From positions 1 through 38,365 of IMG/VR virus record IMGVR_UViG_2778261245_000001: DNA of 38,365 nucleotides; one strand, given 5' to 3'. A model generated the notes under the pieces. That model worked only from the letters and a program-made list of their open reading frames with translations, ran no database searches and was not told the origin of the DNA. This DNA is from a virus (lineage: Duplodnaviria; Heunggongvirae; Uroviricota; Caudoviricetes). Positions 15,429 to 36,838 of the stretch are shown here, piece by piece. Within the stretch, counting starts at the first letter, position 1; every line of letters starts with the position of its first letter. A program made the position numbers and the translations under genes.

Positions 15429-15454
15429 GAACCAGTTCCCACTGCCAGAGGGGA

Positions 15455-15514: not shown

Positions 15515-15553
15515 ATACCCGCGAAAAATGAAATTTAAACAGGAGTGCCGCAT

Positions 15554-17778: not shown

Positions 17779-17930
17779 AATCACTAATTGCTGATGTTAT
17801 CGGGCTGGCTGGTTTTGGCCTGCTTACGTGCGGGTTTTACCTGCAGTTTGGTATGGCTCCGGCTCTGATGCTGTCCGGCGGTTTACTGCTGGTGGGCGCA
17901 CTGGCTATGGCCAGAAGGGGGACGCGTGCT
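17775..17930 (+). CDS. Possible small hydrophobic protein (51 aa) between terminase and portal
   Basis: ATG overlapping the TerL stop (ATGA); translation [53 protein letters not shown] is almost entirely hydrophobic; below ORF-track size cutoff. Confidence 0.3.
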
Positions 17931-19747: not shown

Positions 19748-19757
19748 AGGAAACATC

Positions 19758-20987
19758 ATGAAACTGCATGAACTGAAACAGAAACGTAATACTATCGCAA
19801 CTGACATGCGCGCCCTGAATGAAAAAATTGGTGATAACGCATGGACGGAAGAGCAGCGCACTGAGTGGAACAAAGCAAAATCCGAACTGGAAGCTCTTGA
19901 TGAACGAATTGCACGCGAAGAAGAACTGCGTCGTCAGGATCAGGCGTACATTGAAAGCAATGAGGAAGAGCAGCGTCAGAATCTTGATCCGGAAAACAAT
20001 TCGCAACAGGATGAGAAACGAGCTCAGGTTTTTGATAAGTGGATGCGTCACGGTGCCAGTGAGCTGACATCAGAAGAGCGAAAGGCGTTGCGTGAACTTC
20101 GTGCCCAGGGTGTAGCTCAGGATGAAAAGGGCGGATATACCGTACCAGAAACATTCCTGGCGAAAGTTGTTGAGAAGATGAAATCCTACGGTGGCATCGC
20201 CAGTGTGGCGCAGATTCTGACCACTTCTGACGGTCGCACCATGGAGTGGGCAACAGCTGATGGTACTTCCGAAGTTGGTGTTCTGCTGGGCGAAAATGAA
20301 GAAGCCGGTGAAGAAGACACCGATTTCGGTATGGGAAGTCTTGGGGCGCTCAAAATGACATCGAAAATCATTCGTGTGTCTAATGAGTTGCTGCAGGACA
20401 GCGCGATCGATATGGAAGCTTATCTTGCCCGTCGCATTGCTGAACGTATTGGTCGTGGTGAAGCCCGTTATCTGATTCAGGGGACGGGGGCTGGTACGCC
20501 TAAACAACCCAAAGGGCTGGTCGCATCTGTGACCGGCACAACACAGACTGCCGCGGCAAATACGGTGAAGTGGCAGGAAATTCTGGCTCTGAAACACAGC
20601 ATTGATCCTGCATATCGTCGCGGACCGAAATTCCGCCTGGCGTTTAACGATAATACGCTGAAACTGATCAGTGAGATGGAAGACGGTCAGGGACGCCCTT
20701 TATGGTTGCCGGATATTGTTGGTGTGGCACCTGCTTCAGTGTTGAATGTACCGTATGTCATTGATCAGGAAATTGATGATATCGGGGCGGGTAAAAAATT
20801 CATGTTCTGTGGTGACTTTGATCGCTTCATTATCCGTCGTGTGCGATACATGATTCTTAAACGTCTGGTTGAGCGTTACGCGGAATATGATCAGACCGGT
20901 TTTCTGGCCTTCCATCGTTTTGACTGTATCCTGGAAGACACCTCTGCCATTAAAGCGCTGGTGGGGAAAGGTAGCGTTGGTGGTTGA
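19758..20987 (+). CDS. Major capsid protein (HK97 fold) with N-terminal scaffold-like delta domain
   Basis: 409 aa; charged coiled-coil N-terminus (first about 100 aa) followed by capsid domain; position after protease. Confidence 0.9.
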   Translation: MKLHELKQKRNTIATDMRALNEKIGDNAWTEEQRTEWNKAKSELEALDERIAREEELRRQDQAYIESNEEEQRQNLDPENNSQQDEKRAQVFDKWMRHGASELTSEERKALRELRAQGVAQDEKGGYTVPETFLAKVVEKMKSYGGIASVAQILTTSDGRTMEWATADGTSEVGVLLGENEEAGEEDTDFGMGSLGALKMTSKIIRVSNELLQDSAIDMEAYLARRIAERIGRGEARYLIQGTGAGTPKQPKGLVASVTGTTQTAAANTVKWQEILALKHSIDPAYRRGPKFRLAFNDNTLKLISEMEDGQGRPLWLPDIVGVAPASVLNVPYVIDQEIDDIGAGKKFMFCGDFDRFIIRRVRYMILKRLVERYAEYDQTGFLAFHRFDCILEDTSAIKALVGKGSVGG

Positions 20988-21065
20988 TTAGTCTTTTTAC
21001 GTAATACAGCACGCCGCGTAATGCGGTTTTTTTGTGCCCGCGTTCTGGCGGGCACAGGAGGTTTT

Positions 21066-21389
21066 ATGCTGTTAAAAATGGAAGAGATTAAGCTTCAGCT
21101 CCGTCTGGATGATGATTTCTCTGATGAAGATGAGTTGCTTGAACTGCTTGGTAAGGCCGCTCAGAGTCGTACGGAAAACTTCCTTAACCGTAAGTTGTAT
21201 GCAACCGCAGATGACAGGCCTGCGGATGATCCTGATGGGCTTGTGATATCTGATGATGTGAAGCTGGCGCTTCTGCTACTTGTCAGCCATTTCTACGAAA
21301 ACCGCTCAACGGTTACAGACGTTGAGAAAATGGAGTTGCCAATGAGTTTTAACTGGTTGGTTGCTCCTTATCGCCTTATACCACTATGA
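21066..21389 (+). CDS. Head-tail connector protein (gp6-like)
   Basis: About 107 aa from ATG 21066 with AGGAGG RBS; acidic small protein after capsid gene. Confidence 0.65.
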   Translation: MLLKMEEIKLQLRLDDDFSDEDELLELLGKAAQSRTENFLNRKLYATADDRPADDPDGLVISDDVKLALLLLVSHFYENRSTVTDVEKMELPMSFNWLVAPYRLIPL

Positions 21390-21796
21390 AAATTCGTCAG
21401 GCGCAGACCAGCGCAACCTACATACTGCCGGACCCAGGCGAGCTGAATAAACGCGTCCTGATCCGCCAGCGGGTGGATATGCCCGCGGATAACTTTGGCG
21501 TGGAGCCTCAATACCCGGTTGCGTTCCGGGCATGGGCGAAGGTTATCCAGACCAGTGCCACCACCTGGCAGGAAACCGCGCAGATCGGAGACGCCATCAC
21601 CCATTACATCACCATTCGCTACCGCCGGGGGATCACTGCTGATTATGAGGTGGTCTGTGATGACAGTGTGTACCGGGTGAAACGTCAGCGTGATCTGAAC
21701 GGGGCGCGGCGCTTTCTGCTGCTGGAGTGTACGGAACTGGGTGCCGAAGAACAAATGGGAGGACGCAGTGGAGCAGACAGCATTTTTACACGTTGA
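21386..21796 (+). CDS. Head closure / head-tail adaptor protein
   Basis: 136 aa, overlapping start, position in head-completion block. Confidence 0.6.
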   Translation: MKIRQAQTSATYILPDPGELNKRVLIRQRVDMPADNFGVEPQYPVAFRAWAKVIQTSATTWQETAQIGDAITHYITIRYRRGITADYEVVCDDSVYRVKRQRDLNGARRFLLLECTELGAEEQMGGRSGADSIFTR

Positions 21797-22292
21797 TTTC
21801 AAACAACCGGAGGAGATGGAGTTTAATCGTGCCAGGCTCCGAAGGGCATTTGTTCAAATCGGGCGTGTCTATATGCGTGATGCCCGGCGGCTGGTGATGC
21901 GACGTGGTCGGTCTGCTCCAGGTGAAAACCCCGGCTATCAGACCGGACGACTTGCGCGTTCTATAGGTTATTACGTCCCCCGTAAAAGCTCCCGTCGTTC
22001 TGGCCTGATGGTCAGGATTTCCCCTAACCAGAAAAACGGGCAGGGTAACCGGCGTTTTCCTGAAGGTTCTGCGTATTATCCGGCGTTTCTGTATTACGGT
22101 GTGCGTCATGCCGCATACGGGATGAGCAAAAAGGATAAGCGCCAGAAAAAGCAGCATTCATCCCGCTGGCGGCTGGCACCACGTAATAACTTTATGGCTG
22201 ATGTCATCGACCAGCGTCGTTACTGGACACAAAAGTTACTGTCCCGTGAGTTACAGCGGTCATTACGTCCTGTAAGAAGGAAAAAAACATGA
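21768..22292 (+). CDS. HK97 gp10-like neck/tail-attachment protein
   Basis: GTG 21768 with GGAGG RBS 5 nt upstream; basic protein in head-completion block. Confidence 0.55.
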   Translation: MEQTAFLHVDFKQPEEMEFNRARLRRAFVQIGRVYMRDARRLVMRRGRSAPGENPGYQTGRLARSIGYYVPRKSSRRSGLMVRISPNQKNGQGNRRFPEGSAYYPAFLYYGVRHAAYGMSKKDKRQKKQHSSRWRLAPRNNFMADVIDQRRYWTQKLLSRELQRSLRPVRRKKT

Positions 22293-22849
22293 AACTGACG
22301 CCTGTTATTGCTGCGCTGCGTGCCCGCTGCCCGTATTTTGAAAACCGGGTGGCAGGCGCGGCCCAGTTCAAAAATCTGCCGGAGGTCGGAAAGCTGAAAC
22401 TCCCGGCGGCATATGTGGTACCGGGGGATGATTCTCCGGGAGAAAACAAAAGCCAGACCGACTACTGGCAGGAGCTGAAAGAGGGCTTCTCCGTGGTTGT
22501 CATACTGAGTAACTGGCGTGATGAGCGCGGTCAGTTTGCCTCGTATGATGTGGTGGACGATGTCCGGCAGATGCTCTTTAAGGCCCTGCTGGGCTGGAAC
22601 CCGGAAGCGTGCGGTAACCCGATTACCTATGACGGCGGCACGCTGCTGGATCTGAATCGTCATGAGCTGATTTATCAGTTCGATTTTTCGGTCATCAGCG
22701 AGCTGACCGAAGACGATACCCGCCAGCAGGATGAGCTGAACAGTCTGGATGAACTGCGAACGCTGGCGATTGATGTTGATTATCTCGATCCCGGTAACGG
22801 GCCTGACGGCGATATCGAACATCACACCGAAATAACCATTCCTTCCTGA
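22289..22849 (+). CDS. Tail completion / terminator-like protein
   Basis: 186 aa immediately upstream of the sheath block; assignment by position only. Confidence 0.45.
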   Translation: MKLTPVIAALRARCPYFENRVAGAAQFKNLPEVGKLKLPAAYVVPGDDSPGENKSQTDYWQELKEGFSVVVILSNWRDERGQFASYDVVDDVRQMLFKALLGWNPEACGNPITYDGGTLLDLNRHELIYQFDFSVISELTEDDTRQQDELNSLDELRTLAIDVDYLDPGNGPDGDIEHHTEITIPS

Positions 22850-22857
22850 GAATCTTC

Positions 22858-23028
22858 ATGTTTGTGAAACCTGTTAAAGGGCGGTCAGTGCCTGACCCTG
22901 CCCGCGGTGACCTTTTGCCCACCGAAGGGCGAAATGTTGACGAGAACAACTACTGGCTGCGCCGTGAAGCAGCGGGTGATATCCGGCGCGTGAATAAAAA
23001 GGTGAACACCGATGACGATAAGCTTTAA
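22858..23028 (+). CDS. Small DUF2635-like protein preceding tail sheath (56 aa)
   Basis: ATG 22858, MFVKPVKGRSVPDPARGDLLPTEGRNVDENNYWLRREAAGDIRRV; such a small gene commonly precedes the sheath gene in Mu-like tail modules; below ORF-track cutoff. Confidence 0.4.
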   Translation: MFVKPVKGRSVPDPARGDLLPTEGRNVDENNYWLRREAAGDIRRVNKKVNTDDDKL

Positions 23029-24508
23029 CACCATTCCGTCGAATACGCTGGTTCCGCTGTTTTATGCGGAAATGGATAACTCGGCGGCGAATACTGCACA
23101 GGACAGCGGGGCATCGTTGCTGATTGGTCACGCCAATAACGGTGCAGAGATTGTTGCCAACAGTCTGGTGCTGATGCCGTCGGCAGACTATGCACGCCAG
23201 ATTTGTGGTGTGGGAAGTCAGCTGGCGCGTATGGTCGAGGCTTATCGCCAGACCGACCCGTTTGGCGAGCTGTATGTGATTGCCGTTCCGGAAGCCACAG
23301 GCGCGGCGGCAACGGTTACGCTGACGGTGACCGGAGCAGCAACCGAAACCGGCACGGTGAATGTTTATGTGGGACGTACCCGCGTGCAGGCACCGGTGAC
23401 CAACGGCGATAACGTCACGACGATTGCCAGCAGTATCAAAGATGCCATCAATGCCGTTCCGGCCCTGCCGTTTACGGCTTCATCTTCGGCAGGCGTGGTC
23501 ACACTGACCGCGCGTCATAAGGGGCTTTGCGGGAATGAAATTCCTGTCAGCCTCAATTACTACGGCTTTGGTGGGGGCGAAGTGCTGCCAGCGGGCGTAC
23601 AGATTGCCGTGGCGACGGGTACCGCCGGAACGGGTGCTCCGGTTCTCACCGGCGCGGTGGCTGCAATGGCGGATGAGCCGTTTGATTATATCGGACTGCC
23701 GTTCAACGACACGGCCTCCGTTAACACGCTGGTGACCGAGATGAACGATACCAGCGGTCGCTGGAGCTATGCGCGTCAGCTGTATGGTCATGTGTATACG
23801 GCAAAGATCGGCACGCTGTCAGAACTGGTGACCGCAGGTGACCAGTTTAACCAGCAGCACATTACCCTGGCGGGGTACGAAAAAGAGACCCAGACGCCTG
23901 CCGACGAACTGGCGGCAAGCCGTACCGCCCGCGCAGCGGTGTTTATTCGCAACGATCCGGCACGTCCCACGCAGACCGGTGAGCTGGTGGGTATGCTGCC
24001 TGCGCCGAAGGGGAAACGGTTCACGATGACCGAACAACAGACCCTGCTGTCTCATGGCGTGGCAACGGCGTATGTCGAAAGCGGGGTACTGCGCATTCAG
24101 CGTGATGTCACCACGTACAGGAAAAACGCTTACGGGGTTGCGGATAACAGCTACCTAGACAGTGAGACTCTGCATACCAGCGCGTATGTACTGCGCAAAC
24201 TGAAATCCGTCATTACCAGTAAGTACGGGCGTCACAAGCTTGCCAGTGACGGTACCCGCTTTGGTCCCGGTCAGGCGATTGTCACCCCGGCGGTGATCAA
24301 AGGGGAACTGCTGGCAACCTACCGTCAGCTTGAGCGTGCGGGGATCGTGGAAAACTACGCACTGTTTAAGCAGTACCTGGTTGTGGAGCGTGATGCCAGC
24401 GATCCGAACCGCCTGAACACGCTGTTCCCGCCTGACTATGTTAACCAGTTGCGTGTCTTTGCCGTGGTTAACCAGTTCCGTCTTCAGTATTCAGAGGAGT
24501 CCGCATAA
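23012..24508 (+). CDS. Tail sheath protein (Mu gpL-like)
   Basis: 498 aa; first large gene of the tail block followed by tube and chaperones. Confidence 0.85.
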   Translation: MTISFNTIPSNTLVPLFYAEMDNSAANTAQDSGASLLIGHANNGAEIVANSLVLMPSADYARQICGVGSQLARMVEAYRQTDPFGELYVIAVPEATGAAATVTLTVTGAATETGTVNVYVGRTRVQAPVTNGDNVTTIASSIKDAINAVPALPFTASSSAGVVTLTARHKGLCGNEIPVSLNYYGFGGGEVLPAGVQIAVATGTAGTGAPVLTGAVAAMADEPFDYIGLPFNDTASVNTLVTEMNDTSGRWSYARQLYGHVYTAKIGTLSELVTAGDQFNQQHITLAGYEKETQTPADELAASRTARAAVFIRNDPARPTQTGELVGMLPAPKGKRFTMTEQQTLLSHGVATAYVESGVLRIQRDVTTYRKNAYGVADNSYLDSETLHTSAYVLRKLKSVITSKYGRHKLASDGTRFGPGQAIVTPAVIKGELLATYRQLERAGIVENYALFKQYLVVERDASDPNRLNTLFPPDYVNQLRVFAVVNQFRLQYSEESA

Positions 24509-24864
24509 TGGCCCGTATCGGGGGAACCTGTTATTTCAAAATTGACGGTCAGCAGCTATCGCTGACCGGCGGCATTGAGGTGCCCATGAACAGGACGGTC
24601 AATGATGACATCATCGGCCTGGACGGTTCAGTGGACCGCAAGGAAACTCACCGTGCGCCTTATGTCAAAGGGACCTTCAAGGTGCCGAAGAATTTTCCGG
24701 TGAGCAAAATCACCTCGTCTGATGAGATGACCATCACTGCCGAGCTGGCGAACGGTCAGGTCTATGTACTGTCGTCTGCCTGGCTGCACGGCGAAGCGAA
24801 CCATAATGCCGAAGAAGGCACGGTCGATCTTGAGTTCCACGGTGAAGAAGGGGATTACCAGTAA
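24508..24864 (+). CDS. Tail tube protein (Mu gpM-like)
   Basis: 118 aa immediately after sheath with ATGA-type overlap. Confidence 0.8.
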   Translation: MARIGGTCYFKIDGQQLSLTGGIEVPMNRTVNDDIIGLDGSVDRKETHRAPYVKGTFKVPKNFPVSKITSSDEMTITAELANGQVYVLSSAWLHGEANHNAEEGTVDLEFHGEEGDYQ

Positions 24865-25133
24865 TGAAAGAGCTTGAGTTAAAGAAACCGATTACCGCTC
24901 ATGGCGAGACACTCTCCGTACTGGAGTTTGATGAGCCCACCGGGAAAGATGTCCGCGAGCTGGGGTATCCCTACCAGATGAATCAGGATGAGTCCGTCAG
25001 ACTTCTGGCGCATGTGGTGTCGAAATACATTGTGCGGCTGGCGAAAGTGCCGCAAAGCTCTGTCGACCAGATGTCTCCGGCAGACCTGAATGCAGCGGCG
25101 TGGCTTGTGGCTGGTTTTTTCCTCCAGGCCTGA
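24864..25133 (+). CDS. Tail assembly chaperone (G-like)
   Basis: 89 aa between tube and tape measure; contains a slippery heptamer near its 3-prime end. Confidence 0.7.
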   Translation: MKELELKKPITAHGETLSVLEFDEPTGKDVRELGYPYQMNQDESVRLLAHVVSKYIVRLAKVPQSSVDQMSPADLNAAAWLVAGFFLQA

Positions 25134-25282
25134 CGGCTGAATACCTCACTGATCGCTTCTTTGACTGCGCCAGCTACTGGCGCATTAATCCCTTCGAATT
25201 GCTGAATATGCCGATCAGTGAAATTCCCTTGCTGGTCAGTCAGGCAAACAGGATAGAGCAGGAGAAACGCACACATGGCTGA
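25100..25282 (+). CDS. -1 frame extension giving the G-T-like frameshifted chaperone
   Basis: ORF in the -1 frame overlapping the end of the G-like gene; slippery T TTT TTC at 25115-25121; extension ends at the start of the tape measure gene. Confidence 0.5.
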   Translation: MACGWFFPPGLTAEYLTDRFFDCASYWRINPFELLNMPISEIPLLVSQANRIEQEKRTHG

Positions 25283-27107
25283 ATTTGAGCTTAAGGCGTT
25301 GATCACCGGTGTCGACAGGCTTTCTCCCGCGCTGTCGAAAATGCAAAAGAAAATCCGGGGATTTAAACGCCAGGCGGAAGAAGCGTCACAGGGTGGGCTG
25401 GCGCTTGGTGGAGGACTGGCAGCGGGGCTGACGCTTTCCCTGAAATCTTATGCCGATCAGGAAAACGCCGCTACCGGGCTGAAAGTCGCCATGATGGATG
25501 CGAACGGCGAGGTTGGAAAGAGCTTTCAGGACATCAATAAACTGGCTATTGGCCTGGGTAACCAGCTACCCGGTACAACGGCTGATTTCCAGAACATGAT
25601 GCAGATGCTGGTGCGTCAGGGGATCCCGGCAGAAAACATTCTGGGTGGTGTGGGTAAAGCGACAGCTTATCTTGCGGTACAACTGAAAAAAACACCGGAA
25701 GCGGCTGCTGAGTTTGCTGCAAAGATGCAGGATGCTACCGGAACGGCGTCAGAAGACATGATGGGGCTGTTCGACACTATCCAGAAGGCGTTTTATCTGG
25801 GCGTTGACGATACCAACATGTTGTCCTTCTTCACTAAAACCAGTTCTGTTCTGAAGATGGTGAACAAGGACGGTCTTCAGGCTGCACAGAGCCTTGCCCC
25901 CATCAGCGTCATGATGGATCAGATGGGGATGAACGGGGAGTCGGCAGGTAATGCCCTGCGAAAAGTTATCCAGTCCGGATTAAGTGTTAAGAAAATCAGG
26001 GACGTCAATAAAGTCATGGCCCGCCAGAAACTCGGGGTACAGCTCGATTTTACTGACGGCAAAGGAAGTTTTGGCGGTCTTGATAACATGTTCAGGCAAC
26101 TGGCAAAGTTGCGAAAACTGACCGACGTTAAGCGAACAGGCGTACTTAAGGCAATATTTGGTGATGATGCCGAAACCCTTCAGGTGGTCAATGTCCTGAT
26201 CGATAAAGGAAAGGATGGCTACGATCAGATCCAGCAGAAGATGAATAAACAGGCCAGCCTGAATAAACGTGTTCAGGCTCAGCTTGGTACGCTGTCCAAC
26301 CTGTGGGAGGCAATGACGGGGACCGCAACTAACGGTCTTGCAGCTATTGGCGGAGCATTTTCTGGTGACGCTAAAAATATCACGCAATGGCTGGGGGAGT
26401 TGGGGGAAAAATTCACGAAGTTTGCGGATGAAAATCCCCGGGTTATTCGCGGCGTCGTCGGGCTTGCTGCCGGTCTTGCGATTCTGAAACTGGGATTGAT
26501 GGGCGTTGGCGGTGCCATCAGTATTGTCAGCAGGATCATGTCGATGACGCCGATTGGCATGATTGCGACGGCGATAGCCCTGGCTGCGGGATTAATTATC
26601 ACTAACTGGGATGTTGTCGGACCTTATTTTAAGAAACTCTGGGAAACCATTGGTCCTTATTTTGAGGCTGGCTGGGAACTCCTTAAGAAAGTTTTTGCCT
26701 GGTCGCCGCTGGGGATGGTGATCAATAACTGGGGGCCGGTTGTTAAGTGGTTTCAGGATATGTGGGACAAGCTGAAGCCAATTATTGAGTGGTTTACCGA
26801 CAGTTCCGGTGACACGGTCGATGCCATTAACTCTGCGCAGTGGGGCGCGGGTGCTTATGATGCTTATGGGACGGGAATACCGACGCGGGGATACACACCT
26901 TATCCGGCGGTGGATCCGGCTCAGTCAAACAACGCCTCCGATGCCACAGGCCCGAATCCCTTCATGATTAACAAAGCTATCGCGCCAAAAGTTGATGGCG
27001 AGATCAAGGTTTCATTTATGAATATGCCACCAGGTATGCGGGTTACGGAAACACGTTCCAGTGGCATTGATATTAATCACGATGTTGGGTACACCAGATT
27101 TAGGTAA
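25275..27107 (+). CDS. Tail tape measure protein
   Basis: 610 aa, coiled-coil rich with glycine-rich hydrophobic segment; position after chaperones. Confidence 0.85.
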   Translation: MAEFELKALITGVDRLSPALSKMQKKIRGFKRQAEEASQGGLALGGGLAAGLTLSLKSYADQENAATGLKVAMMDANGEVGKSFQDINKLAIGLGNQLPGTTADFQNMMQMLVRQGIPAENILGGVGKATAYLAVQLKKTPEAAAEFAAKMQDATGTASEDMMGLFDTIQKAFYLGVDDTNMLSFFTKTSSVLKMVNKDGLQAAQSLAPISVMMDQMGMNGESAGNALRKVIQSGLSVKKIRDVNKVMARQKLGVQLDFTDGKGSFGGLDNMFRQLAKLRKLTDVKRTGVLKAIFGDDAETLQVVNVLIDKGKDGYDQIQQKMNKQASLNKRVQAQLGTLSNLWEAMTGTATNGLAAIGGAFSGDAKNITQWLGELGEKFTKFADENPRVIRGVVGLAAGLAILKLGLMGVGGAISIVSRIMSMTPIGMIATAIALAAGLIITNWDVVGPYFKKLWETIGPYFEAGWELLKKVFAWSPLGMVINNWGPVVKWFQDMWDKLKPIIEWFTDSSGDTVDAINSAQWGAGAYDAYGTGIPTRGYTPYPAVDPAQSNNASDATGPNPFMINKAIAPKVDGEIKVSFMNMPPGMRVTETRSSGIDINHDVGYTRFR

Positions 27108-27114
27108 AGACGAA

Positions 27115-27136
27115 CAGGGAGGGCCGTCCCTCCCTG
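27115..27136. terminator. GC-rich hairpin between convergent tape-measure and opposite-strand accessory gene
   Basis: Perfect 9-bp stem CAGGGAGGG / CCCTCCCTG with 4-nt loop; no strong T-tract on either side. Confidence 0.4.
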
Positions 27137-27139
27137 AAC

Positions 27140-27586
27140 TTACTGTGCGAACACGCAATTTCGGCCTGATGGGGAGCCGACAATTCTGGACATTTTTTCG
27201 CAAATAACAGTTACTTGTTCTCCTTTTTTAAGAGCAGCAGCTGTTGATTTTTCAGAGTCTTGCATCTCCATTCTTGCTGGCATGAATTCATTTTCAGTTC
27301 TGAATTTAATAATTATAGAGTCAGTAAAGTCCTTATCAATGGATTGTACGATACCTCTAACGGCGATTAATTTACCTTTTAACTGTTCATCGGTAGCGAC
27401 TTCATTTTCTTCATACTCTTTAAACAGCTGTCGAGCAGTAGTGTTGTAGATTTCTTTTTGCGGTGCCGCAGCTTCCGTATCGGATGAGTATGAAGAATTA
27501 GAGCCTTTATCGTTATTGCCTGCAAAATATCCAATAATCACCAACCCGATGAAAATATATAAAATCCATTTTAATAATTTCTTCAT
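27140..27586 (-). CDS. Membrane-anchored or secreted OB-fold protein (tRNA_anti-like family), accessory gene on opposite strand
   Basis: 148 aa, AT-rich; N-terminal hydrophobic helix KWILYIFIGLVIIGYFAG; motif YEENEVATDEQLKGKLIAVRGIVQSIDKD...KKGEQVTVICE fits the OB-fold pattern of that family as recalled. Confidence 0.55.
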   Translation of the reverse strand: MKKLLKWILYIFIGLVIIGYFAGNNDKGSNSSYSSDTEAAAPQKEIYNTTARQLFKEYEENEVATDEQLKGKLIAVRGIVQSIDKDFTDSIIIKFRTENEFMPARMEMQDSEKSTAAALKKGEQVTVICEKMSRIVGSPSGRNCVFAQ

Positions 27587-27696
27587 GTTATCACCTTAAT
27601 GCTAATAATTTATATAGTTACAAATGGTAATGGCTACCACTACAAATTATGGCATTACCAGTAAATATTACTACTGATAATAAATATGGGACTTAT

Positions 27697-29025
27697 ATGA
27701 CGTGGAAAGACAGGCTTCAGGATGCGTCATTTCGCAGCGTGCCGTTTAAGGTTGAAGAAGAAAGTGCGGGAACCGGTCGCCGTGTGGAAACACATGAATA
27801 CCCGAACCGCGACAAGCCCTATACCGAAGATCTGGGAAAAGTCACTTTCCGCCCGTCCATCACAGCTTATGTGGTGGGAGATGACTGCTTTGACCAGCGC
27901 GATCGCCTGATTGAAGCGCTGAATAAACCCGGTCCCGGCACACTTGTCCACCCGACATATGGTGAGCTGAAAGTCTGTGTTGACGGGGAAGTTCGGGTCA
28001 GCACATCGAAAAGTGAAGGGCGTATTGTCCGCTTTGACCTGAAGTTTGTCGAAGCAGGAGAACTCTCTTACCCCACATCAGGTGCGGCGACGGCGCAGAC
28101 GCTGATGTCATCCTGTTCTGCACTGGATGACTGCATCAGTGACAGCTTCAGCGGTTTCAGTATCGATGGTGTGGCGGATTTCGTGCAGAACGACGTTATC
28201 GGTAATGCCAGCACAATGCTTGGGTATGTTTCTGATGCGATGAAAGTGGTGGATTCTGCCGTATCGGATGCCGCCAGGCTGTTGCAGGGGGATATCTCGG
28301 TACTTCTGCCGCCGCCATCCTCAGGCAAAAATTTCGTTGAGCAGGTGCAGAAAATGTGGCGTACCGGGAAACGCCTTTATGGTAACGCCAGCGACCTGGT
28401 CACCATGATCAAAACGCTTTCCGGTGTCAGCCTCGGCAGCGATCTGCAACCGCGCGGCGTCTGGAAAACGGACAGTAAAACCACCGCCACGGCGACGCAG
28501 CAGCGTAACGTGGTTGCCAGCACCCTTCGTACGACCGCAATCAGCGAAGCGGCGTATGCCGTCACCCGATTGCCTGCGCCAACAACTTCCGCGGTGATGC
28601 AGAATTCCGCAGTGGGGCAGGCAACAACACCCGCGCAGAGCACTGGCTGGCCTTCCGTCACGCATCCGGCACTGAACAATGCACCGGCGGTGAAAAACAC
28701 GGTTGACCTGCCAACGTGGGAAGAACTGACCGACATTCGCGACACACTGAATACGGCAATTGATAAGGAGTTGTCCCGTACAACCAGTGATGCGCTGTTT
28801 CTGGCGCTGCGCCGGGTGAAAGCAGATCTGAATGCGGATATCAACACGCGCCTTGAACAGTCTGCACGGATCATTCAGCGCACACCGGATGAGGTTTTAC
28901 CCGCGCTGGTGCTGGCGGCGACCTGGTTTGATAACGCGGCGCGTGACGCGGACATTATCCGGCGTAATGCCATTACGCATCCCGGCTTTGTGCCGGTGAT
29001 CCCTCTGAAGGTGCCAGTGCAATGA
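27697..29025 (+). CDS. Mu gpN-like DNA circularisation / tail protein
   Basis: About 442 aa from ATG 27697; first gene after tape measure in Mu-type baseplate block. Confidence 0.75.
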   Translation: MTWKDRLQDASFRSVPFKVEEESAGTGRRVETHEYPNRDKPYTEDLGKVTFRPSITAYVVGDDCFDQRDRLIEALNKPGPGTLVHPTYGELKVCVDGEVRVSTSKSEGRIVRFDLKFVEAGELSYPTSGAATAQTLMSSCSALDDCISDSFSGFSIDGVADFVQNDVIGNASTMLGYVSDAMKVVDSAVSDAARLLQGDISVLLPPPSSGKNFVEQVQKMWRTGKRLYGNASDLVTMIKTLSGVSLGSDLQPRGVWKTDSKTTATATQQRNVVASTLRTTAISEAAYAVTRLPAPTTSAVMQNSAVGQATTPAQSTGWPSVTHPALNNAPAVKNTVDLPTWEELTDIRDTLNTAIDKELSRTTSDALFLALRRVKADLNADINTRLEQSARIIQRTPDEVLPALVLAATWFDNAARDADIIRRNAITHPGFVPVIPLKVPVQ

Positions 29026-30101
29026 ACGACAATGTCACGCTACGGGTAAATGGCCGGGAGTGGAATGGCTGGACATCGGTGCGCATCGGTGCCGGTATTG
29101 AACGGCTGGCGCGGGATTTCAGTGTGGAGATCACTCGCCAGTGGCCGGGAGATGAGGGTATCACCACGCTTCAGCCGCGCATTAAAAACGGTTCAAAAGT
29201 GGAAGTGCTGATTGGTGATGAGCTGGTGATCACCGGCTGGGTGGAGGCGACTCCCGTTCGTTACGATGCCCGTTCGGTCAGCACCGGTATTGCCGGACGT
29301 AGTCTGACGGCTGACCTGATTGACTGTGCAGCCGAACCGACACAGTTTAACGGACGCTCGCTGGTGCAGATTGCGCAGGCGCTTGCTGCGCCTTTCGGCA
29401 TTGAGGTGGTGAACAGCGGTGCGCCATCGGGTGTTATTCCTGATGTTCAGCCTGATCACGGTGAAACGGTGATTGAGGTAATCAACAAAATACTCGGTCA
29501 GCAGCAGGCGCTGGCTTACGACGACCCGCACGGCAGGCTGGTGATTGGCGGTATTGGCTCAACGCGGGCACATACCGTGCTGGTACTTGGGGAAAACATC
29601 CTTTCCTGTGATACGGAGAAGAGTATCCGGGAGCGGTTTTCTGTTTACCAGGTGGCGGGGCAGCGTGCCGGAAACGACGATGATTTCGGTGAGGCCACCA
29701 CCACCGCGCTGCGGGCCCGCACAGAGGACGCATTTATTGCCCGTTACCGTCCGATGTATATCAGGCAGACAGGGCAGGCCACGGGGGCAGGTTGTATTGC
29801 GCGTGCTGACTTTGAAGCCCGACAACGGGCGGCGCGGACGGATGAAACCACCTATGTGGTGCAGGGCTGGCGACAGGGTAACGGTACGCTGTGGCAGCCC
29901 AACCAGCGGGTGATTGTCTTCGATCCGGTCTGTGGTTTCGACAATACCGAACTGCTTGTCTCGGAAGTCACGTTTACTCAGTACCAGAACGGCACCCTGA
30001 CGGAAATCCGTGTCGGCCCACCTGATGCTTATCTGCCTGAACCCGAAGCCCCCGGCGCGCGGAAAAAGAAAAAAGCCAGAGTACAGGAGGACCCGTTCTG
30101 A
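29022..30101 (+). CDS. Mu gpP-like baseplate hub protein
   Basis: 359 aa, position in Mu-type order. Confidence 0.75.
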   Translation: MNDNVTLRVNGREWNGWTSVRIGAGIERLARDFSVEITRQWPGDEGITTLQPRIKNGSKVEVLIGDELVITGWVEATPVRYDARSVSTGIAGRSLTADLIDCAAEPTQFNGRSLVQIAQALAAPFGIEVVNSGAPSGVIPDVQPDHGETVIEVINKILGQQQALAYDDPHGRLVIGGIGSTRAHTVLVLGENILSCDTEKSIRERFSVYQVAGQRAGNDDDFGEATTTALRARTEDAFIARYRPMYIRQTGQATGAGCIARADFEARQRAARTDETTYVVQGWRQGNGTLWQPNQRVIVFDPVCGFDNTELLVSEVTFTQYQNGTLTEIRVGPPDAYLPEPEAPGARKKKKARVQEDPF

Positions 30102-30649
30102 TGAGGACGATTGAAGCCATGCAGCGACAACTCCTCGGCCTGATTGGGCGGGCCGTGGTGAAAAGCATCAGTGCCGCCACGAAATGTCAGACCGTGGATG
30201 TGTCCCTGATTGCCGGTGAACCCAAAGCCGGGGTTGAACATCTTGAACCCTACGGTTTTACCGCAAGGGCAAACAGCGGTGCGGAAGCGGTGGTGTTGTT
30301 TCCGGATGGAGACCGTTCTCATGCGGTGGTTGTTACGGTGTCGGACCGTCGCTACCGCCTGAAAGGGCTGCAGACTGGGGAGGTGGCTGTCTATGACGAT
30401 CAGGGGCAGTCCGTGACGCTGACCCGGGAGGGGATCGTGGTGGACGGTGCAGGTAAAACGATCACGTTTCGCAATGCGCCTAAGGCACGTTTTGAAATGG
30501 ACCTGGAAGTGACAGGACAGGTGAAAGACCTGTGCGACTCCAGCGGCACCACCATGTCAGCGATGCGGCTTGCCTATAACGGGCATCGTCACAGAGAGAA
30601 CGGTCAGGGCAGTAACACCGACAAACCTGATAAAGCGATGGAGGCATGA
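30101..30649 (+). CDS. Baseplate spike/assembly protein (Mu gp45-like, V-type)
   Basis: 182 aa, position in Mu-type order. Confidence 0.65.
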   Translation: MRTIEAMQRQLLGLIGRAVVKSISAATKCQTVDVSLIAGEPKAGVEHLEPYGFTARANSGAEAVVLFPDGDRSHAVVVTVSDRRYRLKGLQTGEVAVYDDQGQSVTLTREGIVVDGAGKTITFRNAPKARFEMDLEVTGQVKDLCDSSGTTMSAMRLAYNGHRHRENGQGSNTDKPDKAMEA

Positions 30650-31074
30650 TGGAACTGTGGCTGACGGTGAACGGTAAACGCACCTGCGCCAGCGCACCGC
30701 TGGATCCGCTGACCCGCGCCGTGGTGATTTCCCTGTTTACCTGGCGGCGGGCGGAGCCTGATGACAACGCCGGCGTCCCGATGGGATGGTGGGGGGATAC
30801 CTGGCCTGCGGTACAGAATGACCGTTACGGCTCCCGACTGTGGCTGCTTCAGCGCAGCAAACTGACCAATCAGCTGGTGCAGACGGTAAGGGGGTATATC
30901 CGCGAATGCCTGCAATGGATGATTGATGATGGCGTGGTGTCCCGTATTGATCTGGATATCCGCCGCACCGGGATTAATGAACTGGGTAACAGTATCACTC
31001 TCTGGCGTCGTGACGGACCGGTAATGATTTCTTTTGATGATCTGTGGAGTGCGATAACGCATGGCGGACAGTGA
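30646..31074 (+). CDS. Mu gp46-like baseplate protein
   Basis: 142 aa, position in Mu-type order. Confidence 0.65.
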   Translation: MMELWLTVNGKRTCASAPLDPLTRAVVISLFTWRRAEPDDNAGVPMGWWGDTWPAVQNDRYGSRLWLLQRSKLTNQLVQTVRGYIRECLQWMIDDGVVSRIDLDIRRTGINELGNSITLWRRDGPVMISFDDLWSAITHGGQ

Positions 31075-32119
31075 ATTTCAGCGCCCGACGCTGGCAGAAA
31101 ATATCAGTATGCTCCGTAACGATTTATTCGCCTGGCTGGACGTCAGCGACACGCTCCGGCGCATGGATGAAGACGTGCGGGCAAAGGTGTATGCGGCGGC
31201 GCTGCATACGGTTTACGGGTACATCGATTATCTGGCAATGAACATGCTGCCTGACTTGTGCGATGAGTCCTGGCTGGCGCGACATGCTGCGATGAAACGA
31301 TGTCCGCGCAAGGGGGCCACGGCTGCCAGCGGGTATATGCGCTGGGAAGGTGTCAGCGATGGCCTGAAGGTGACCGCCGGGAGTGTTATTCAGCGCGATG
31401 ACCTGGTGCAGTACACGGCAACTGCCGATGCAACCAGCTCCGGTGGTGTCCTGCGCGTGCCGATCGCCTGCTCAAGTGCAGGCGCGGTCGGTAACGCTGA
31501 CGACGGTACGTCATTAATCCTGGTCACGCCGGTGAATGGTCTGCCGTCTTCCGGCGTGGCAGATACACTGACAGGTGGATTTGATACTGAAGAGCTGGAA
31601 ACGTGGCGCGCCCGCGTCATTGAGCGGTATTACTGGACGCCTCAGGGCGGGGCTGACGGGGACTATGTCGTCTGGGCTAAAGAAGTTCCCGGCATTACCC
31701 GCGCATGGACATACCGACACTGGATGGGAACGGGGACTGTCGGTGTGATGATTGCCAGCAGCGACCTGATTAATCCCATTCCGGAAGAATCAACGGAAAC
31801 GGCGGCAAGGCTGCATATCGAGCCACTGGCCCCGGTGGCAGGCTCTGATTTGTATGTGTTCAGGCCGGTGGCACATACGGTGGATTTTCATATCCGTGTG
31901 ACGCCGGACACACCGGAAATACGGGCTGCCATCACCGCGGAGTTGCGTTCGTTCCTGCTGCGTGATGGTTATCCGCAGGGGGAACTGAAGGTATCGCGTA
32001 TCAGTGAGGCGATTTCCGGAGCGAACGGGGAATACAGCCATCAGTTGCTTGCACCGGCAGACAATATCTCCATTGCAAAAAATGAACTGGCGGTACTGGG
32101 GACGATTTCATGGACGTGA
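31061..32119 (+). CDS. Baseplate J-like protein (Mu gp47-like)
   Basis: 352 aa, position in Mu-type order. Confidence 0.75.
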
Positions 32120-32694
32120 CAAACGATGATTACATCCGTCTGTTGTCGGCACTGTTGCCCCCCGGTCCGGCGTGGTCAGCCAGCGATCCGGCGATTGCCG
32201 GTGCGGCACCGTCATTAACCCGCGTTCATCAGCGTGCGGATGCCCTGATGCGGGAGCTGGATCCGCGCACCACCACTGAACTGATAAACCGCTGGGAGCG
32301 TCTGTGCGGTCTGCCGGATGAATGTATTCCCGCAGGGACACAGACCCTTCGCCAGCGTCAGCAACGGCTGGATGCGAAGGTTAACCTGGCGGGCGGCATC
32401 AACGAGAATTTTTATCTTGCACAGCTTGCTGCCCTGGGCAGACCAGACGCTACCATCACGCGATACGACAAAAGCACGTTCACCTGCTCATCGGCCTGTA
32501 CTGACGCGGTGAATGCGCCGGAATGGCGGTATTACTGGCAGGTCAACATGCCAGCCGCCACAAACACCACCTGGATGACATGTGGCGATCCCTGTGATTC
32601 CGCGCTGCGTATCTGGGGCGACACCGTTGTCGAATGTGTGCTTAACAAACTCTGCCCGTCGCATACCTACGTAATTTTTAAATATCCGGAGTAA
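32110..32694 (+). CDS. Mu gp48-like tail protein (DUF2313, e14 YmfQ-like)
   Basis: 194 aa directly upstream of tail fibre gene, as ymfQ in e14. Confidence 0.7.
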
Positions 32695-32697
32695 TCC

Positions 32698-33468
32698 ATG
32701 CATCGTATAGACACGAAAACCGCGCAGAAGGATAAGTTCGGCGCGGGTAAGAACGGTTTTACCCGTGGTAACCCCCAGACTGGCACACCTGCCACCGATC
32801 TCGATGATGACTACTTTGATATGTTGCAGGAGGAGCTTTGCAGCGTGGTGGAGGCATCCGGTGCCAGCCTGGAGAAGGGGCGAAACGACCAGTTGCTTAC
32901 CGCGCTTCGTGCTCTGCTGTTAAGCCGCAAGAATCCGTTTGGTGATATCAAATCGGATGGCACGGTGAAAACGGCTCTCGAAAACCTTGGTTTGGGAGAA
33001 GGCTCTGCATTACCTGTTGGTGTGCCTGTTCCATGGCCTTCAGCCACACCGCCAACAGGCTGGCTGAAATGCAACGGTGCGGCATTTTCTGCTGAAGAAT
33101 ACCCGGAACTGGCAAAGGCTTATCCAACAAATAAATTACCTGATTTACGCGGTGAGTTTATTCGTGGCTGGGATGACGGGCGCGGTATTGATGCAGGACG
33201 TGTTTTATTGAGCATTCAGACAGGGATGCTGGAAAAACACCGCCATATTGTTGTTGCAAATGATGGTTACGACACAAAAGATGAATGGGAACTGGCTACG
33301 ATTTTCAAAAAGACATACACACAAGGACGGGGACTTGATGCCACAAATACAGGAGGGAGTCTGATCCCATCACCGACACTTCATTCACGAGGGAGTATCG
33401 GTAATACTGGCGGGAATGAAACCCGTCCACGAAATATTGCATTTAATTTTATCGTGAGGGCTGCATAA
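32698..33468 (+). CDS. Tail fibre protein: constant N-terminal part fused to the currently expressed variable C-terminal part
   Basis: 256 aa; recombination crossover site lies inside the gene at about codons 93-101 (ALENLGLGE); glycine-rich C-terminal region. Confidence 0.75.
32975..33000. other. Left crossover site of the invertible segment (Hin/Gin/Pin-type 26-bp site)
   Basis: CTCTCGAAAACCTTGGTTTGGGAGAA, imperfect palindrome resembling hix/gix sites; its right half is repeated inverted at 34865-34879. Confidence 0.6.
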
Positions 33469-34070
33469 TGGATAACGCCGTATTAAATAGCGAGCTTATT
33501 GCCACGAAGGCGGGGAATATTACCGTCTATAACTATGATGGTAAAACTCGGGAATATATTTCCACTTCAAATGAATATCTTGCCATTGGTGTCGGTATCC
33601 CTGCATATTCCTGTTTAGATGCCCCTGGCACACATAAGGCGGGTTATGCTATCTGCCGTTCGATGGATTTAAACTCATGGGAATATGTGCCAGATCATCG
33701 CGGTGAAATTGTCTATAGCACCGAAACAGGAGAATCGAAAGAAATCACAGCTCCGGGTGATTATCCTGAAAATACAACCACTATCGCCCCGTTAACGCCA
33801 TACGATGAATGGAATGGTGAGAAATGGGTGACAGATACCGAGGCACAGCACGGCGCAGCAGTAGATGCAGCAGAAGCACAGCGCCAGTCGCTGATTGATA
33901 CTGCAATGGCCTCCATCAGTCTGATTCAACTGAAATTACAGGCCGGACGGAAGCTGACGCAGGCAGAAACAACCCGCCTTAACGCTGTGCTGGATTACAT
34001 TGACGCGGTGACGGCAACAGATACCAGCACAGCGCCGGATGTCATCTGGCCTGAATTGCCGGAGGCGTAG
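33468..34070 (+). CDS. Tail fibre assembly protein (chaperone) for the expressed fibre variant
   Basis: 200 aa; immediately follows fibre gene; C-terminal region similar to that of the opposite-strand paralog (TSTAPDVIWPELP vs TSGAPDIEWPTPP). Confidence 0.7.
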   Translation: MDNAVLNSELIATKAGNITVYNYDGKTREYISTSNEYLAIGVGIPAYSCLDAPGTHKAGYAICRSMDLNSWEYVPDHRGEIVYSTETGESKEITAPGDYPENTTTIAPLTPYDEWNGEKWVTDTEAQHGAAVDAAEAQRQSLIDTAMASISLIQLKLQAGRKLTQAETTRLNAVLDYIDAVTATDTSTAPDVIWPELPEA

Positions 34071-34494
34071 GCCATTCAATATCTGGCGCACCGGAAGTAT
34101 CGATCAGCTCCAGTGCGTCCAGATAATCCAGCCACAAATTATATTGCGCCAGTTCCTCACCTTTCAGACGACCAATAGCGGCTTTACCAGGCCATTGCTT
34201 ACCGTTCATGTATTCGTTAGCCTGGTTAATTAGTAGCTGTCTTTCTGATTCAGTAATTTCAATAAGCTCTTCATGAGTAGGTGGAGGAATATCTGCCCAC
34301 GCAGGTAGTCCATCCTCTCCGGCAATACGGACTTTTCCTTGTGGCGGTTCAGCCATAAACTCACTGACAATATTTTGATTCACCTCCTTAGCATCTGATA
34401 AATCCCATCCTACTGATTTATATTTATCAATCATATCCACAGGGAAAAAAGCATTATGCCTGGCACTATAAACATATTCGTTCATATAAATCAC
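34042..34494 (-). CDS. Alternative tail fibre assembly protein (opposite orientation)
   Basis: 150 aa; paralogous C-terminus to 33468-34070; convergent arrangement typical of invertible fibre cassettes. Confidence 0.7.
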   Translation of the reverse strand: MIYMNEYVYSARHNAFFPVDMIDKYKSVGWDLSDAKEVNQNIVSEFMAEPPQGKVRIAGEDGLPAWADIPPPTHEELIEITESERQLLINQANEYMNGKQWPGKAAIGRLKGEELAQYNLWLDYLDALELIDTSGAPDIEWPTPPAIQAR

Positions 34495-34505
34495 CCTGAA
34501 TAAAA

Positions 34506-34878
34506 TTACTCACCAACAGCCCACCAACTGTAATGCATAGATACCGTGTCACTGGTTGATGACGTTCTGTAAGCAGAATTAAAGCCGGTTAACGTAGGGC
34601 CTTCTGCAGTCATCACGAACCCTCGCCCAGCGCCTAAAGGCGCACCGCCATCACCAGAATGGGTAAGAATGGCGCAGTCCGCTTTTTTAGGGAAAGGGAT
34701 AGGAAATGTAATCCTCATTGTTTGCGTCGATAATTTCGGCATAGCCTCGCCTCGACCATATTGCAGAATTTTACCGTTGGGTAATTTCATCCATCCATCA
34801 CCACTGGCAAAAGAGGCCATGTCCGGTATCTGATTTTCCCCTGTCCCTACATCCCGTTTTGCCGCTTCTCCCAAACCA
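34506..34878 (-). CDS. Alternative variable tail-fibre C-terminal segment (promoterless; expressed only after inversion)
   Basis: Minus-strand ORF whose 5-prime end coincides with the right crossover site (encodes INVGLGE matching the ENLGLGE junction of the expressed fibre); the ORF-track N-terminal extension to 34919 lies outside the segment and is probably not real. Confidence 0.55.
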
Positions 34879-34891
34879 ACGTTTATGAAAA
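34866..34891. other. Right crossover site of the invertible segment
   Basis: Reverse complement reads ...CATAAACGTTGGTTTGGGAGAA, sharing the 15-nt block TTGGTTTGGGAGAAG with the left site in inverted orientation. Confidence 0.6.
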
Positions 34892-34945
34892 TGCAGAAAT
34901 AACGAGCAAATGGCATCATTCCTGCTTTTGTCAGGGGGATCTACC

Positions 34946-35500
34946 ATGCTTATTGGCTATGTACGCGTATCAACAAATGACCAGAACACAGATCTACAAC
35001 GTAATGCGCTGAACTGTGCAGGATGCGAGCTGATTTTTGAAGACAAGATAAGCGGTACAAAGTCCGAAAGGCCGGGACTGAAAAAACTGCTCAGGACATT
35101 ATCGGCAGGTGACACGCTGGTGGTCTGGAAACTGGACCGGCTGGGGCGCAGTATGCGGCATCTTGTCGTGCTGGTGGAGGAGTTGCGCGAACGAGGCATC
35201 AACTTTCGTAGTCTGACGGATTCAATTGATACCAGTACCCCAATGGGGCGCTTTTTCTTTCATGTGATGGGTGCCCTGGCTGAAATGGAGCGTGAACTGA
35301 TTGTTGAAAGAACAAAAGCTGGACTGGAAGCTGCTCGCGCACAGGGACGAATTGGTGGACGTCGTCCCAAACTTACACCAGAACAATGGGAACAGGCCGG
35401 ACGATTAATTGCATCAGGAGTTCCTCGCCAGAAGGTGGCGATTATCTATGATGTTGGTGTGTCAACTTTGTATAAGAGGTTTCCTGCAGGGGATAAATAA
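34946..35500 (+). CDS. pin: Serine DNA invertase (Hin/Gin/Pin family)
   Basis: 184 aa from ATG 34946 with AGGGGGA RBS; MLIGYVRVSTNDQNTDLQRNAL...DTLVVWKLDRLGRSMRHL...GRRPKLT is the resolvase/invertase catalytic and HTH signature; matches PinE as recalled. Confidence 0.9.
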   Translation: MLIGYVRVSTNDQNTDLQRNALNCAGCELIFEDKISGTKSERPGLKKLLRTLSAGDTLVVWKLDRLGRSMRHLVVLVEELRERGINFRSLTDSIDTSTPMGRFFFHVMGALAEMERELIVERTKAGLEAARAQGRIGGRRPKLTPEQWEQAGRLIASGVPRQKVAIIYDVGVSTLYKRFPAGDK

Positions 35501-35606
35501 AGTTAAAGACACTTTTTGTACAAAAGAGAATAAAACAACAGCAACTTGTTGCAATTTTATCAATAAAAGTAGTATTGTCGTGAAAAATTGATTAAAGATT
35601 AATATT

Positions 35607-36440
35607 ATGCATGTTTTTGATAATAATGGAATTGAACTGAAAGCTGAGTGTTCGATAGGTGAAGAGGATGGTGTTTATGGTCTAATCCTTGAGTCGTGGG
35701 GGCCGGGTGACAGAAACAAAGATTACAATATCGCTCTTGATTATATCATTGAACGGTTGGTTGATTCTGGTGTATCCCAAGTCGTAGTATATCTGGCGTC
35801 ATCATCAGTCAGAAAACATATGCATTCTTTGGATGAAAGAAAAATCCATCCTGGTGAATATTTTACTTTGATTGGTAATAGCCCCCGCGATATACGCTTG
35901 AAGATGTGTGGTTATCAGGCTTATTTTAGTCGTACGGGGAGAAAGGAAATTCCTTCCGGCAATAGAACGAAACGAATATTGATAAATGTCCCAGGTATTT
36001 ATAGTGACAGTTTTTGGGCGTCTATAATACGTGGAGAACTATCAGAGCTTTCACAGCCTACAGATGATGAATCGCTTCTGAATATGAGGGTTAGTAAATT
36101 AATTAAGAAAACGTTGAGTCAACCCGAGGGCTCCAGGAAACCAGTTGAGGTAGAAAGACTACAAAAAGTTTATGTCCGAGACCCGATGGTAAAAGCTTGG
36201 ATTTTACAGCAAAGTAAAGGTATATGTGAAAACTGTGGTAAAAATGCTCCGTTTTATTTAAATGATGGAAACCCATATTTGGAAGTGCATCATGTAATTC
36301 CCCTGTCTTCAGGTGGTGCTGATACAACAGATAACTGTGTTGCCCTTTGTCCGAATTGCCATAGAGAATTGCACTATAGTAAAAATGCAAAAGAACTAAT
36401 CGAGATGCTTTACGTTAATATAAACCGATTACAGAAATAA
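35607..36440 (+). CDS. mcrA: McrA-like HNH endonuclease (modified-cytosine restriction)
   Basis: 277 aa, AT-rich; C-terminal CENCGKNAPFYLNDGNPYLEVHHVIPLSSGGADTTDNCVALCPNCH HNH motif; same length and position (after pin, before icd fragment) as mcrA of e14; N-terminus MHVFDNNGIEL as recalled for McrA. Confidence 0.8.
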   Translation: MHVFDNNGIELKAECSIGEEDGVYGLILESWGPGDRNKDYNIALDYIIERLVDSGVSQVVVYLASSSVRKHMHSLDERKIHPGEYFTLIGNSPRDIRLKMCGYQAYFSRTGRKEIPSGNRTKRILINVPGIYSDSFWASIIRGELSELSQPTDDESLLNMRVSKLIKKTLSQPEGSRKPVEVERLQKVYVRDPMVKAWILQQSKGICENCGKNAPFYLNDGNPYLEVHHVIPLSSGGADTTDNCVALCPNCHRELHYSKNAKELIEMLYVNINRLQK

Positions 36441-36673
36441 AATTATTTATTAAAGTCACATTTAAGACGTAATACCCTACAGGGTAAAAATTTTCTCTGA
36501 TCTTAACTTCTGCAAATGTTAACTGCTATTTTTATGCTAAAAATGGTTATCAAAACTCAAAAACACATGTTTATAATCAATGAGTTATAGAAATGCTAAG
36601 GGCTAATGAGTTATATGCAAATTAGTAAAATTATGTTGCTATGTCAAATAGTTACGATTTAGTCATCTAACTA

Positions 36674-36838
36674 ATGTTACGCCATATGGGTTGGACTGAA
36701 GCGGCTGACCTGATTGTTAAAGGTATGGAAGGCGCAATCAATGCCAAGACCGTAACCTATGACTTCGAACGTCTGATGGAAGGCGCTAAACTGCTGAAAT
36801 GTTCAGAGTTTGGTGACGCGATCATCAAGAACATGTAA
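36674..36838 (+). pseudogene. icd: Displaced 3-prime fragment of isocitrate dehydrogenase gene (icdC-like), marking the prophage right junction
   Basis: Encodes (M)[53 protein letters not shown], matching the Icd C-terminus; homology begins abruptly at about 36671 after AT-rich phage DNA. Confidence 0.85.

Follow-up and report, generated by a model that had tools for sequence, protein, structure and literature searches.

A probable two-state tail-fibre switch, the invertible P segment, in a full-length prophage of the e14 family

Introduction

Towards the right end of the stretch of viral DNA analysed here (38,365 nt in full, hereafter the window), a tail-fibre gene, an oppositely oriented fibre-like reading frame and a gene for a serine DNA invertase lie side by side. 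This arrangement raises the question of whether the DNA between them is a switch that joins one fibre N-terminus to either of two C-termini, and if so, which of the known invertible segments it represents and what its inversion brings about. An earlier note on this DNA had proposed a host-range switch driven by Pin and parallel to the G segment of Mu, the C segment of P1 and the P segment of e14. The present analysis supports this interpretation: the region is very probably a two-state, serine-invertase-driven DNA switch, the invertible P segment of an e14-family prophage. Judged by its sequence, the locus has the features of the whole group of systems but is, with respect to e14, the P segment of that prophage family itself and not a mere analogue of it.

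The feature is therefore already known. Plasterk & van de Putte (1985), on the P segment, and Mehta et al. (2004) are cited in the reference list of PMC4272514, and PinE and the P segment of the cryptic e14 prophage in Escherichia coli K-12 were recently studied by Kirigo et al. (2025; PMC12529663). Here we describe the crossover sites, fibre parts, assembly chaperones and invertase of the locus, together with its two orientations in sequenced genomes and the explanations that compete for it.

Genomic context

According to its gene content, the window contains a full-length prophage of the e14 family integrated at icd. The right end of the prophage has the order pin-mcrA-icdC that marks the e14 P segment: pin is followed by mcrA (35607-36440) and by icdC, the duplicate of the C-terminal part of icd (36674-36838), beyond which lie iraM and ycgX. 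Upstream of the switch are Mu-like baseplate genes (gp43-48 types) and genes for a tape measure protein, a sheath, an HK97-type capsid, a portal and a terminase; farther upstream, an S24 repressor and a lambda-type integrase are encoded in an early region of lambdoid type. The window has all major head and tail genes (the inventory was made at the level of presence). The product of mcrA was recognized by PADLOC as mREase_IV (6.5e-203) and constitutes defence cargo adjoining the switch. Scans of the whole window for tRNA genes and Rfam families yielded no matches.

When compared with K-12 MG1655 using BLAST, the window showed colinear blocks at 96-99% identity. The gene order ymfQ, stf, tfa, tfa, stf', pin, mcrA is the same in K-12 e14, as is the position at icd with icdC, iraM and ycgX. 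The two elements differ in extent, because K-12 e14 lacks the DNA corresponding to window positions 5242-16641 and 17701-31331, whereas the prophage in the window is full length. The window can be read as a picture of the intact ancestor from which the K-12 e14 remnant derives, in which a complete set of Mu-like tail genes leads into the switch, and a full-length relative of this kind could allow the effect of P inversion on host range to be tested with real virions. The record ON470584, labelled as a phage and resembling an isolated relative, is actually a prophage excised from a bacterial assembly and gives no support for virion production.

Crossover sites and the invertible segment

Within the 38.4 kb of the window there are exactly two copies of the 15-mer TTGGTTTGGGAGAAG, one on the plus strand (32987-33001) and one on the minus strand (34865-34879), which bears out the claim of the earlier note that two inverted 26-bp hix/gix-like sites share a 15-nt block. 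It is part of an inverted repeat of 20 nt with 95% complementarity (32982-33001 and 34865-34884), the longest inverted repeat of the region. The left pix site (32975-33000, plus strand) reads CTCTCGAAAACC TT GGTTTGGGAGAA, with the core TT at 32987-32988, and the right pix site (34866-34891) reads, on the minus strand, TTTTCATAAACG TT GGTTTGGGAGAA, with its core at 34878-34879. The two sites are alike at 21 of 26 positions. In each, two 12-bp half-sites flank the TT core as an imperfect dyad, with 8-9 of 12 positions in agreement between them, and the half-site that is identical in both (GGTTTGGGAGAA) points into the segment. Two inverted 26-bp sites with 12-bp half-sites and the same 2-bp core, as found here, are what characterizes the Hin/Gin/Cin/Pin (Din) family of DNA-invertase switches. 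The pix sites align gaplessly with the gixL/R and cixL/R sequences of the annotated records for Mu and P1, and the TT core corresponds to the crossover point annotated in P1.

Both 26-mers are present letter for letter in MG1655 (L001 12779 for the left, L001 14606 for the right). Regarding further sites, a search of the window with a relaxed pattern allowing up to 3 mismatches, for which 0.07 matches were expected by chance, did not yield a third one, and the arrangement is therefore a simple two-state one. A shufflon of several segments, as in Min, was rejected for the same lack of extra crossover sites with up to 3 mismatches.

The invertible segment extends from 32989 to 34877, i.e., over 1889 bp between the core dinucleotides, and is in the opposite orientation to that in K-12 MG1655. 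The fibre DNA of the window follows K-12 stfP colinearly as far as position 33002 (96.3% identity), the inverted alignment begins at 32982, and colinearity resumes at 34865 and continues to 38365 at 97%. These switch points place the breakpoints exactly at the repeat. The distance from site to site is 1878 nt in the window and 1814 nt in K-12, and the shared repeat comprises 15 nt in the window as compared with 16 nt in K-12.

Fibre genes and assembly chaperones

The constant N-terminal part of the fibre (32698-32986, plus strand) comprises about 96 codons of the ORF 32698-33468 and lies outside the segment. The left pix site occupies approximately codons 93-101 of this 256-aa ORF, i.e., one crossover site is indeed situated inside the fibre gene at the junction of its constant and variable parts. 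The constant part is at present fused to C-terminal part A (32989-33468, plus strand), which is of the StfE type and contains a Collar domain (Pfam Collar, 1.4e-15; tail fibre and tail collar fibre families of PHROG). Residues 96-256, which represent part A, are 60% identical to K-12 stfE; the StfE-type tip is intact in the window, whereas stfE is annotated as a pseudogene in K-12.

C-terminal part B (34506-34877, minus strand) is currently unfused and contains a gp53-like C-terminal domain (Gp53-like_C, 1.8e-13). The right pix site forms the 5' end of this minus-strand coding stretch, which agrees with the position given for it in the earlier note. The description of the segment as promoterless did not hold in that form: the frame remains open beyond the segment up to an ATG at 34919, giving a 137-aa ORF (34506-34919) with 14 codons outside the segment, so that the unfused copy, having its own ATG there, is not obviously silent. 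That it lacks a promoter is suggested by a promoter and terminator scan of positions 32000-36600, in which no sigma-70-like match reading into the minus-strand ORF was found; the scan yielded 10 promoter-like sites as against 8.5 expected, which is background.

When the segment 32989-34877 was flipped in silico, the reading frame was kept and about 97 codons from the start of the fibre gene were joined to the gp53-like part, resulting in a fibre of 220 aa with the second chaperone gene downstream. A genome in the flipped state carries a fibre CDS of 663 nt annotated by PGAP as gp53-like, the length of which equals that of the predicted 220-aa fibre. The N-terminal portion common to both fusion products is about 97 aa long. 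The locus thus has a constant N-terminus outside the segment and, inside it, two opposed C-termini, each with its own chaperone and each in frame (256 aa and 220 aa). Beyond a short junction that they share, the variable parts are not related to each other (171 aligned columns contain 29 identities), and the tips belong to distinct domain families, Collar and Gp53-like_C. Tips from unrelated families fit the idea of differing receptor specificities.

Each variable part had been said to possess its own assembly chaperone, and Caudo_TAP matches were found for both genes. Chaperone A (33468-34070, plus strand, 200 aa; Caudo_TAP 3.2e-32) is a homologue of TfaE, 90.5% identical to the K-12 protein, and its start overlaps the stop codon of the fibre gene (TAATG). 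Chaperone B (34042-34485, minus strand, 147 aa; Caudo_TAP 5e-29, phrog_188 2.6e-61) is convergent with chaperone A, the two genes overlapping by 29 nt, and shows 51% identity to K-12 TfaP across the C-terminal 106 aa. The gp53-like part, by comparison, is only about 24% identical to the variable part of K-12 StfP (30 of 126 aligned columns). As far as the sequences indicate, the variable fibre tips are all that differs from K-12 within the switch, and this difference is ordinary cassette mosaicism.

Invertase and presumed recombinational enhancer

The invertase gene was reported to be immediately adjacent to the segment, and an ORF with Resolvase and HTH_7 domains does start 54 nt past the right site. 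This gene, pin (34946-35500, plus strand), is intact and codes for a 184-aa serine DNA invertase with matches to Resolvase (PF00239, 1.5e-51) and HTH_7 (PF02796, 1.4e-13). Its product shares 98% identity with K-12 PinE, 83% with P1 Cin and 79% with Mu Gin. It retains Ser9 and the other invariant residues, and 120+ columns are invariant across PinE, Gin and Cin. Pin accordingly has the resolvase catalytic domain, the nucleophilic serine (Ser9/10) and the C-terminal HTH of the small serine recombinases. Only 4 of its 184 residues differ from PinE, all of them in the C-terminal third and outside the catalytic domain. The crossover sites and the invertase are hence those of the studied K-12 e14 system.

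A presumed Fis-dependent recombinational enhancer is located at 34964-35035 (plus strand; nt 19-90 of pin), the positional homologue of the enhancer annotated in P1 cin. This stretch is identical to K-12 pinE at 72 of 72 positions, to P1 at 57 of 72 and to Mu at 55 of 72, a degree of conservation that coding constraint alone could explain. The identity to K-12 covers the first 110 nt of pin, including the 72 enhancer-homologous nt. By analogy with the related systems, inversion would depend on Fis.

Comparison with Mu, P1 and Hin

The Mu G segment is laid out in the same way, gp47-gp48 being followed by the constant part of the fibre, a segment holding two C-termini and two chaperones, and the invertase; in the window, the Mu-like baseplate genes gp45-48 likewise precede the switch. 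The gix sites of Mu align with pix. The G segment differs from the segment in the window in its size (approximately 3 kb), its perfect repeats of 34 bp and its TC core. The Mu fibre S measures 504 aa, whereas the fibre in the window measures 256 or 220 aa, and the variable parts and chaperones (U/U') of Mu belong to other families than those of the window.

The P1 C segment shares with the window the TT core of its cix sites and an inner half-site, GGTTTAAGAGAA, which is near-identical to the GGTTTGGGAGAA of pix. Its enhancer lies within the 5' end of the invertase gene, as presumed for pin. However, the P1 segment is 4.2 kb long, cin is found, with respect to the fibre gene, at the opposite end of the segment, and the P1 fibre S, at 988 aa, is far longer than that of the window. 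The Hin system of the Salmonella H segment uses the same invertase family and the same 26-bp site architecture as Pin, but Hin inverts a promoter that controls flagellin genes, and coding C-termini are not swapped.

Both orientations in nature

A set of 5,426 complete E. coli genomes was surveyed for contiguous matches to the 2.8-kb locus, each orientation being used as the query. Because the segment makes up 67% of the query, a coverage of at least 80% is specific to one orientation. The orientation of the window was found in 85 complete genomes and the orientation flipped in silico in 81; the segment thus occurs in both orientations across genomes, as in the Din family, and the two are about equally common. 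The window's own allele is present in both states, namely in the window orientation in EC05 (99.9% identity) and in the flipped orientation in PK8568, 210205630 and SZQ1 (100%); comparison of the window with PK8568 shows a clean inversion of this segment.

Near-clonal cattle isolates of serotype O157 fall into both orientation lists at one chromosomal coordinate. In the O157 strains 114 and 133, the flanks of the segment are 100% identical (6,304 nt and 6,635 nt), and the sole difference at this place is the inversion of the segment between the sites. The switch copy of these strains is 94.5% identical to that of the window, and their prophage is closely related (97.2% over the tail region). 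In K-12, both orientations coexist within clonal cultures, as confirmed by PCR (PMC4272514). Quantitative PCR indicated about 30% inverted segments in wild-type K-12 and 49% under PinE overproduction, whereas the segment was locked in pinE mutants; inversion took place at the repeat TTGGTTTGGGAGAAGG (PMC12529663). Differences between assemblies of one strain are to be expected in the fibre ORFs described here.

Proposed mechanism and function

By the mechanism proposed for this locus, which is the usual one of the invertase family and the best supported here, Pin dimers would bind both inverted 26-bp pix sites, and an enhancer bound by Fis in the 5' coding part of pin would assemble the invertasome. 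Ser9 would then make cuts with a 2-bp stagger at the identical TT cores, and rotation of subunits and half-sites followed by religation would invert the 1.89-kb segment. In this way the constant, baseplate-proximal part of the fibre would be joined either to part A (256-aa fibre, the present state) or to part B (220-aa fibre), and in each orientation the gene for the matching Tfa chaperone would come to lie downstream in the same transcript. Because the fibre promoter, the start codon and the constant N-terminus are outside the segment, one tip and its matching chaperone would be expressed per orientation. From this we infer that expression is restricted to the fused copy and that the unfused copy is silent.

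A population of lysogens would accordingly be predicted to shed virions of two kinds, differing in the receptor-binding tip. A host-range switch has been demonstrated for Mu; for e14-type phages, two alternative receptor specificities, and hence a consequence for host range, are suggested by analogy with Mu and P1. For K-12 itself, the function of PinE inversion was called unclear, and a role in defence was proposed instead (PMC12529663).

Alternative explanations

According to that proposal, when carried over to the window, the switch would have been domesticated for the defence of the host, the relevant product being the chimeric ORF next to pin (34506-34919), which resembles StfE2. In K-12, StfE2 is formed after inversion from a few codons outside the segment and a gp53-like domain (residues 47-125); resistance to T2 was reported for cells in which the P segment is inverted, as was a lowered adsorption of T2 on production of StfE2, which is reported to block the adsorption of T2 and other phages (PMC12529663). 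The window is already in the configuration called inverted in K-12, with a StfE2-like ORF assembled: its 137-aa product has the same build, with 14 residues from outside the segment and Gp53-like_C at residues 45-136, and further defence cargo (mcrA) adjoins the switch. However, since the variable tips are different alleles from those of K-12, the claim made for StfE2 is not simply transferable, and the gp53-like part, with its identity of about 24%, does not allow the reported activity to be carried over. A PADLOC scan of the StfE2-like ORF gave no match, the scan of 32000-36600 revealed no promoter-like site reading into that ORF, and the effect in K-12 was mainly obtained by overproduction from a plasmid, the mechanism being based there on docking models. 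The complete set of tail genes in the window, unlike K-12 e14, makes the ancestral role in the fibre the simpler assumption. We therefore regard domestication for defence, the one rival that deserves to be retained, as unlikely here, although such a role may coexist with fibre switching.

A combination of the two roles in an apparently complete and possibly inducible prophage, by which one orientation would provide both the Collar-type fibre of the virions and a short StfE2-like protein (34919-34506) that is expressed in the lysogen and blocks the adsorption of competing phages, appears somewhat more doubtful still. If it were true, inversion by Pin would amount to a phase variation of host range and superinfection defence combined.

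The switch of fibre tips might also be a fossil, its sites and gene being kept but inversion having ceased in this lineage (e.g., through lack of pin expression) and the orientation having become fixed. A single assembled window necessarily displays one orientation, and Pin does deviate from PinE at the four residues mentioned, but these lie outside the catalytic domain, and the sites, the core and the enhancer region are those of the active K-12 system. An identical pin and segment allele moreover occurs in both orientations among different strains, and strains 114 and 133, whose prophage is related, differ solely by the flip, which makes a fossil switch very improbable.

That the inverted repeat, a short one (15 exact nt) in the coding sequence of two related genes, could reflect a chance match or paralogous fibre-gene homology devoid of a recombination function can practically be dismissed, because 38 kb should contain an exact 15-mer match on the opposite strand only about 4e-5 times, shuffled sequences yield 0.07-0.12 matches even if mismatches are allowed, the variable parts show no other relationship, the repeat is built as a 12-2-12 dyad like gix and cix, and the breakpoints of natural inversions fall exactly within it.

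Annotation

With the serine-invertase-driven fibre switch as the preferred reading, the locus should be labelled as an e14-family P segment, consisting of the pix sites, pin and alternative cassettes of stf and tfa. The names pinE and tfaE are already in use in the annotation of RefSeq genomes that carry the locus.

Comparison with the K-12 prophage e14

The cryptic prophage e14 of Escherichia coli K-12 MG1655 (L001) is a relative of the full-length prophage in the window (1-38365) and lies, like it, at icd. Comparison of the two revealed two large deletions in e14, corresponding to window positions 5242-16641 and 17701-31331, which account for the chimeric genes or pseudogenes ymfN (oweE/aaaE), beeE and jayE in K-12. 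The unfused copy of the fibre gene (34506-34919, minus strand) is an ORF with a start codon of its own, an ATG situated 14 codons beyond the edge of the invertible segment. The K-12 chimera StfE2, a short gp53-domain ORF formed on inversion of the P segment, has the same build, but the gp53-like parts of the two share only about 24% identity. Blocking of T2 adsorption was reported for the K-12 chimera (PMC12529663).

Invertase-adjacent cargo and the right end

Directly 3' of the invertase gene pin, the prophage carries as cargo the Type IV methyl-directed restriction gene mcrA (35607-36440, plus strand; PADLOC mREase_IV, 6.5e-203), which is followed by the icdC duplicate (36674-36838, plus strand) that marks the right attachment site. 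Whereas the window has mcrA after pin, the O157 relatives (L006/L007, 8865-9638) have a LEM-3-like GIY-YIG nuclease gene in its place, and the slot adjoining the invertase gene is therefore a site of exchangeable cargo.

The GenBank entry 'phage vB_EcoM-689R6' (ON470584.1, L004) is a prophage excised from a bacterial assembly, with icd and host genes included. Because the record starts at pin (L004 1-2309) and its fibre gene is truncated (516 nt), the contig break seems to fall at the invertible segment, as would be expected if the reads contained both orientations.

Left end and other regions

The left edge of the window cuts through an HTH_29-domain ORF (1-336, minus strand) that adjoins the integrase gene. 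Since strain PK8568, which carries the same segment allele in flipped orientation, has an IS481-family element at the matching position, this ORF probably encodes the N-terminal portion of an IS481-type transposase. A stretch of approximately 1.4 kb (13100-14500), which separates the ORFs of the lysis region from the small ones preceding the terminase, contains no ORF of at least 90 aa and yielded no match in tRNA and Rfam scans. A two-gene block (9355-11557, minus strand) lies on the strand opposite to the surrounding phage genes. Its 395-aa protein had no match in Pfam or PADLOC searches; the second product (344 aa) is an NA37/YejK-like nucleoid-associated protein (8e-69). The block may represent a moron or cargo cassette.
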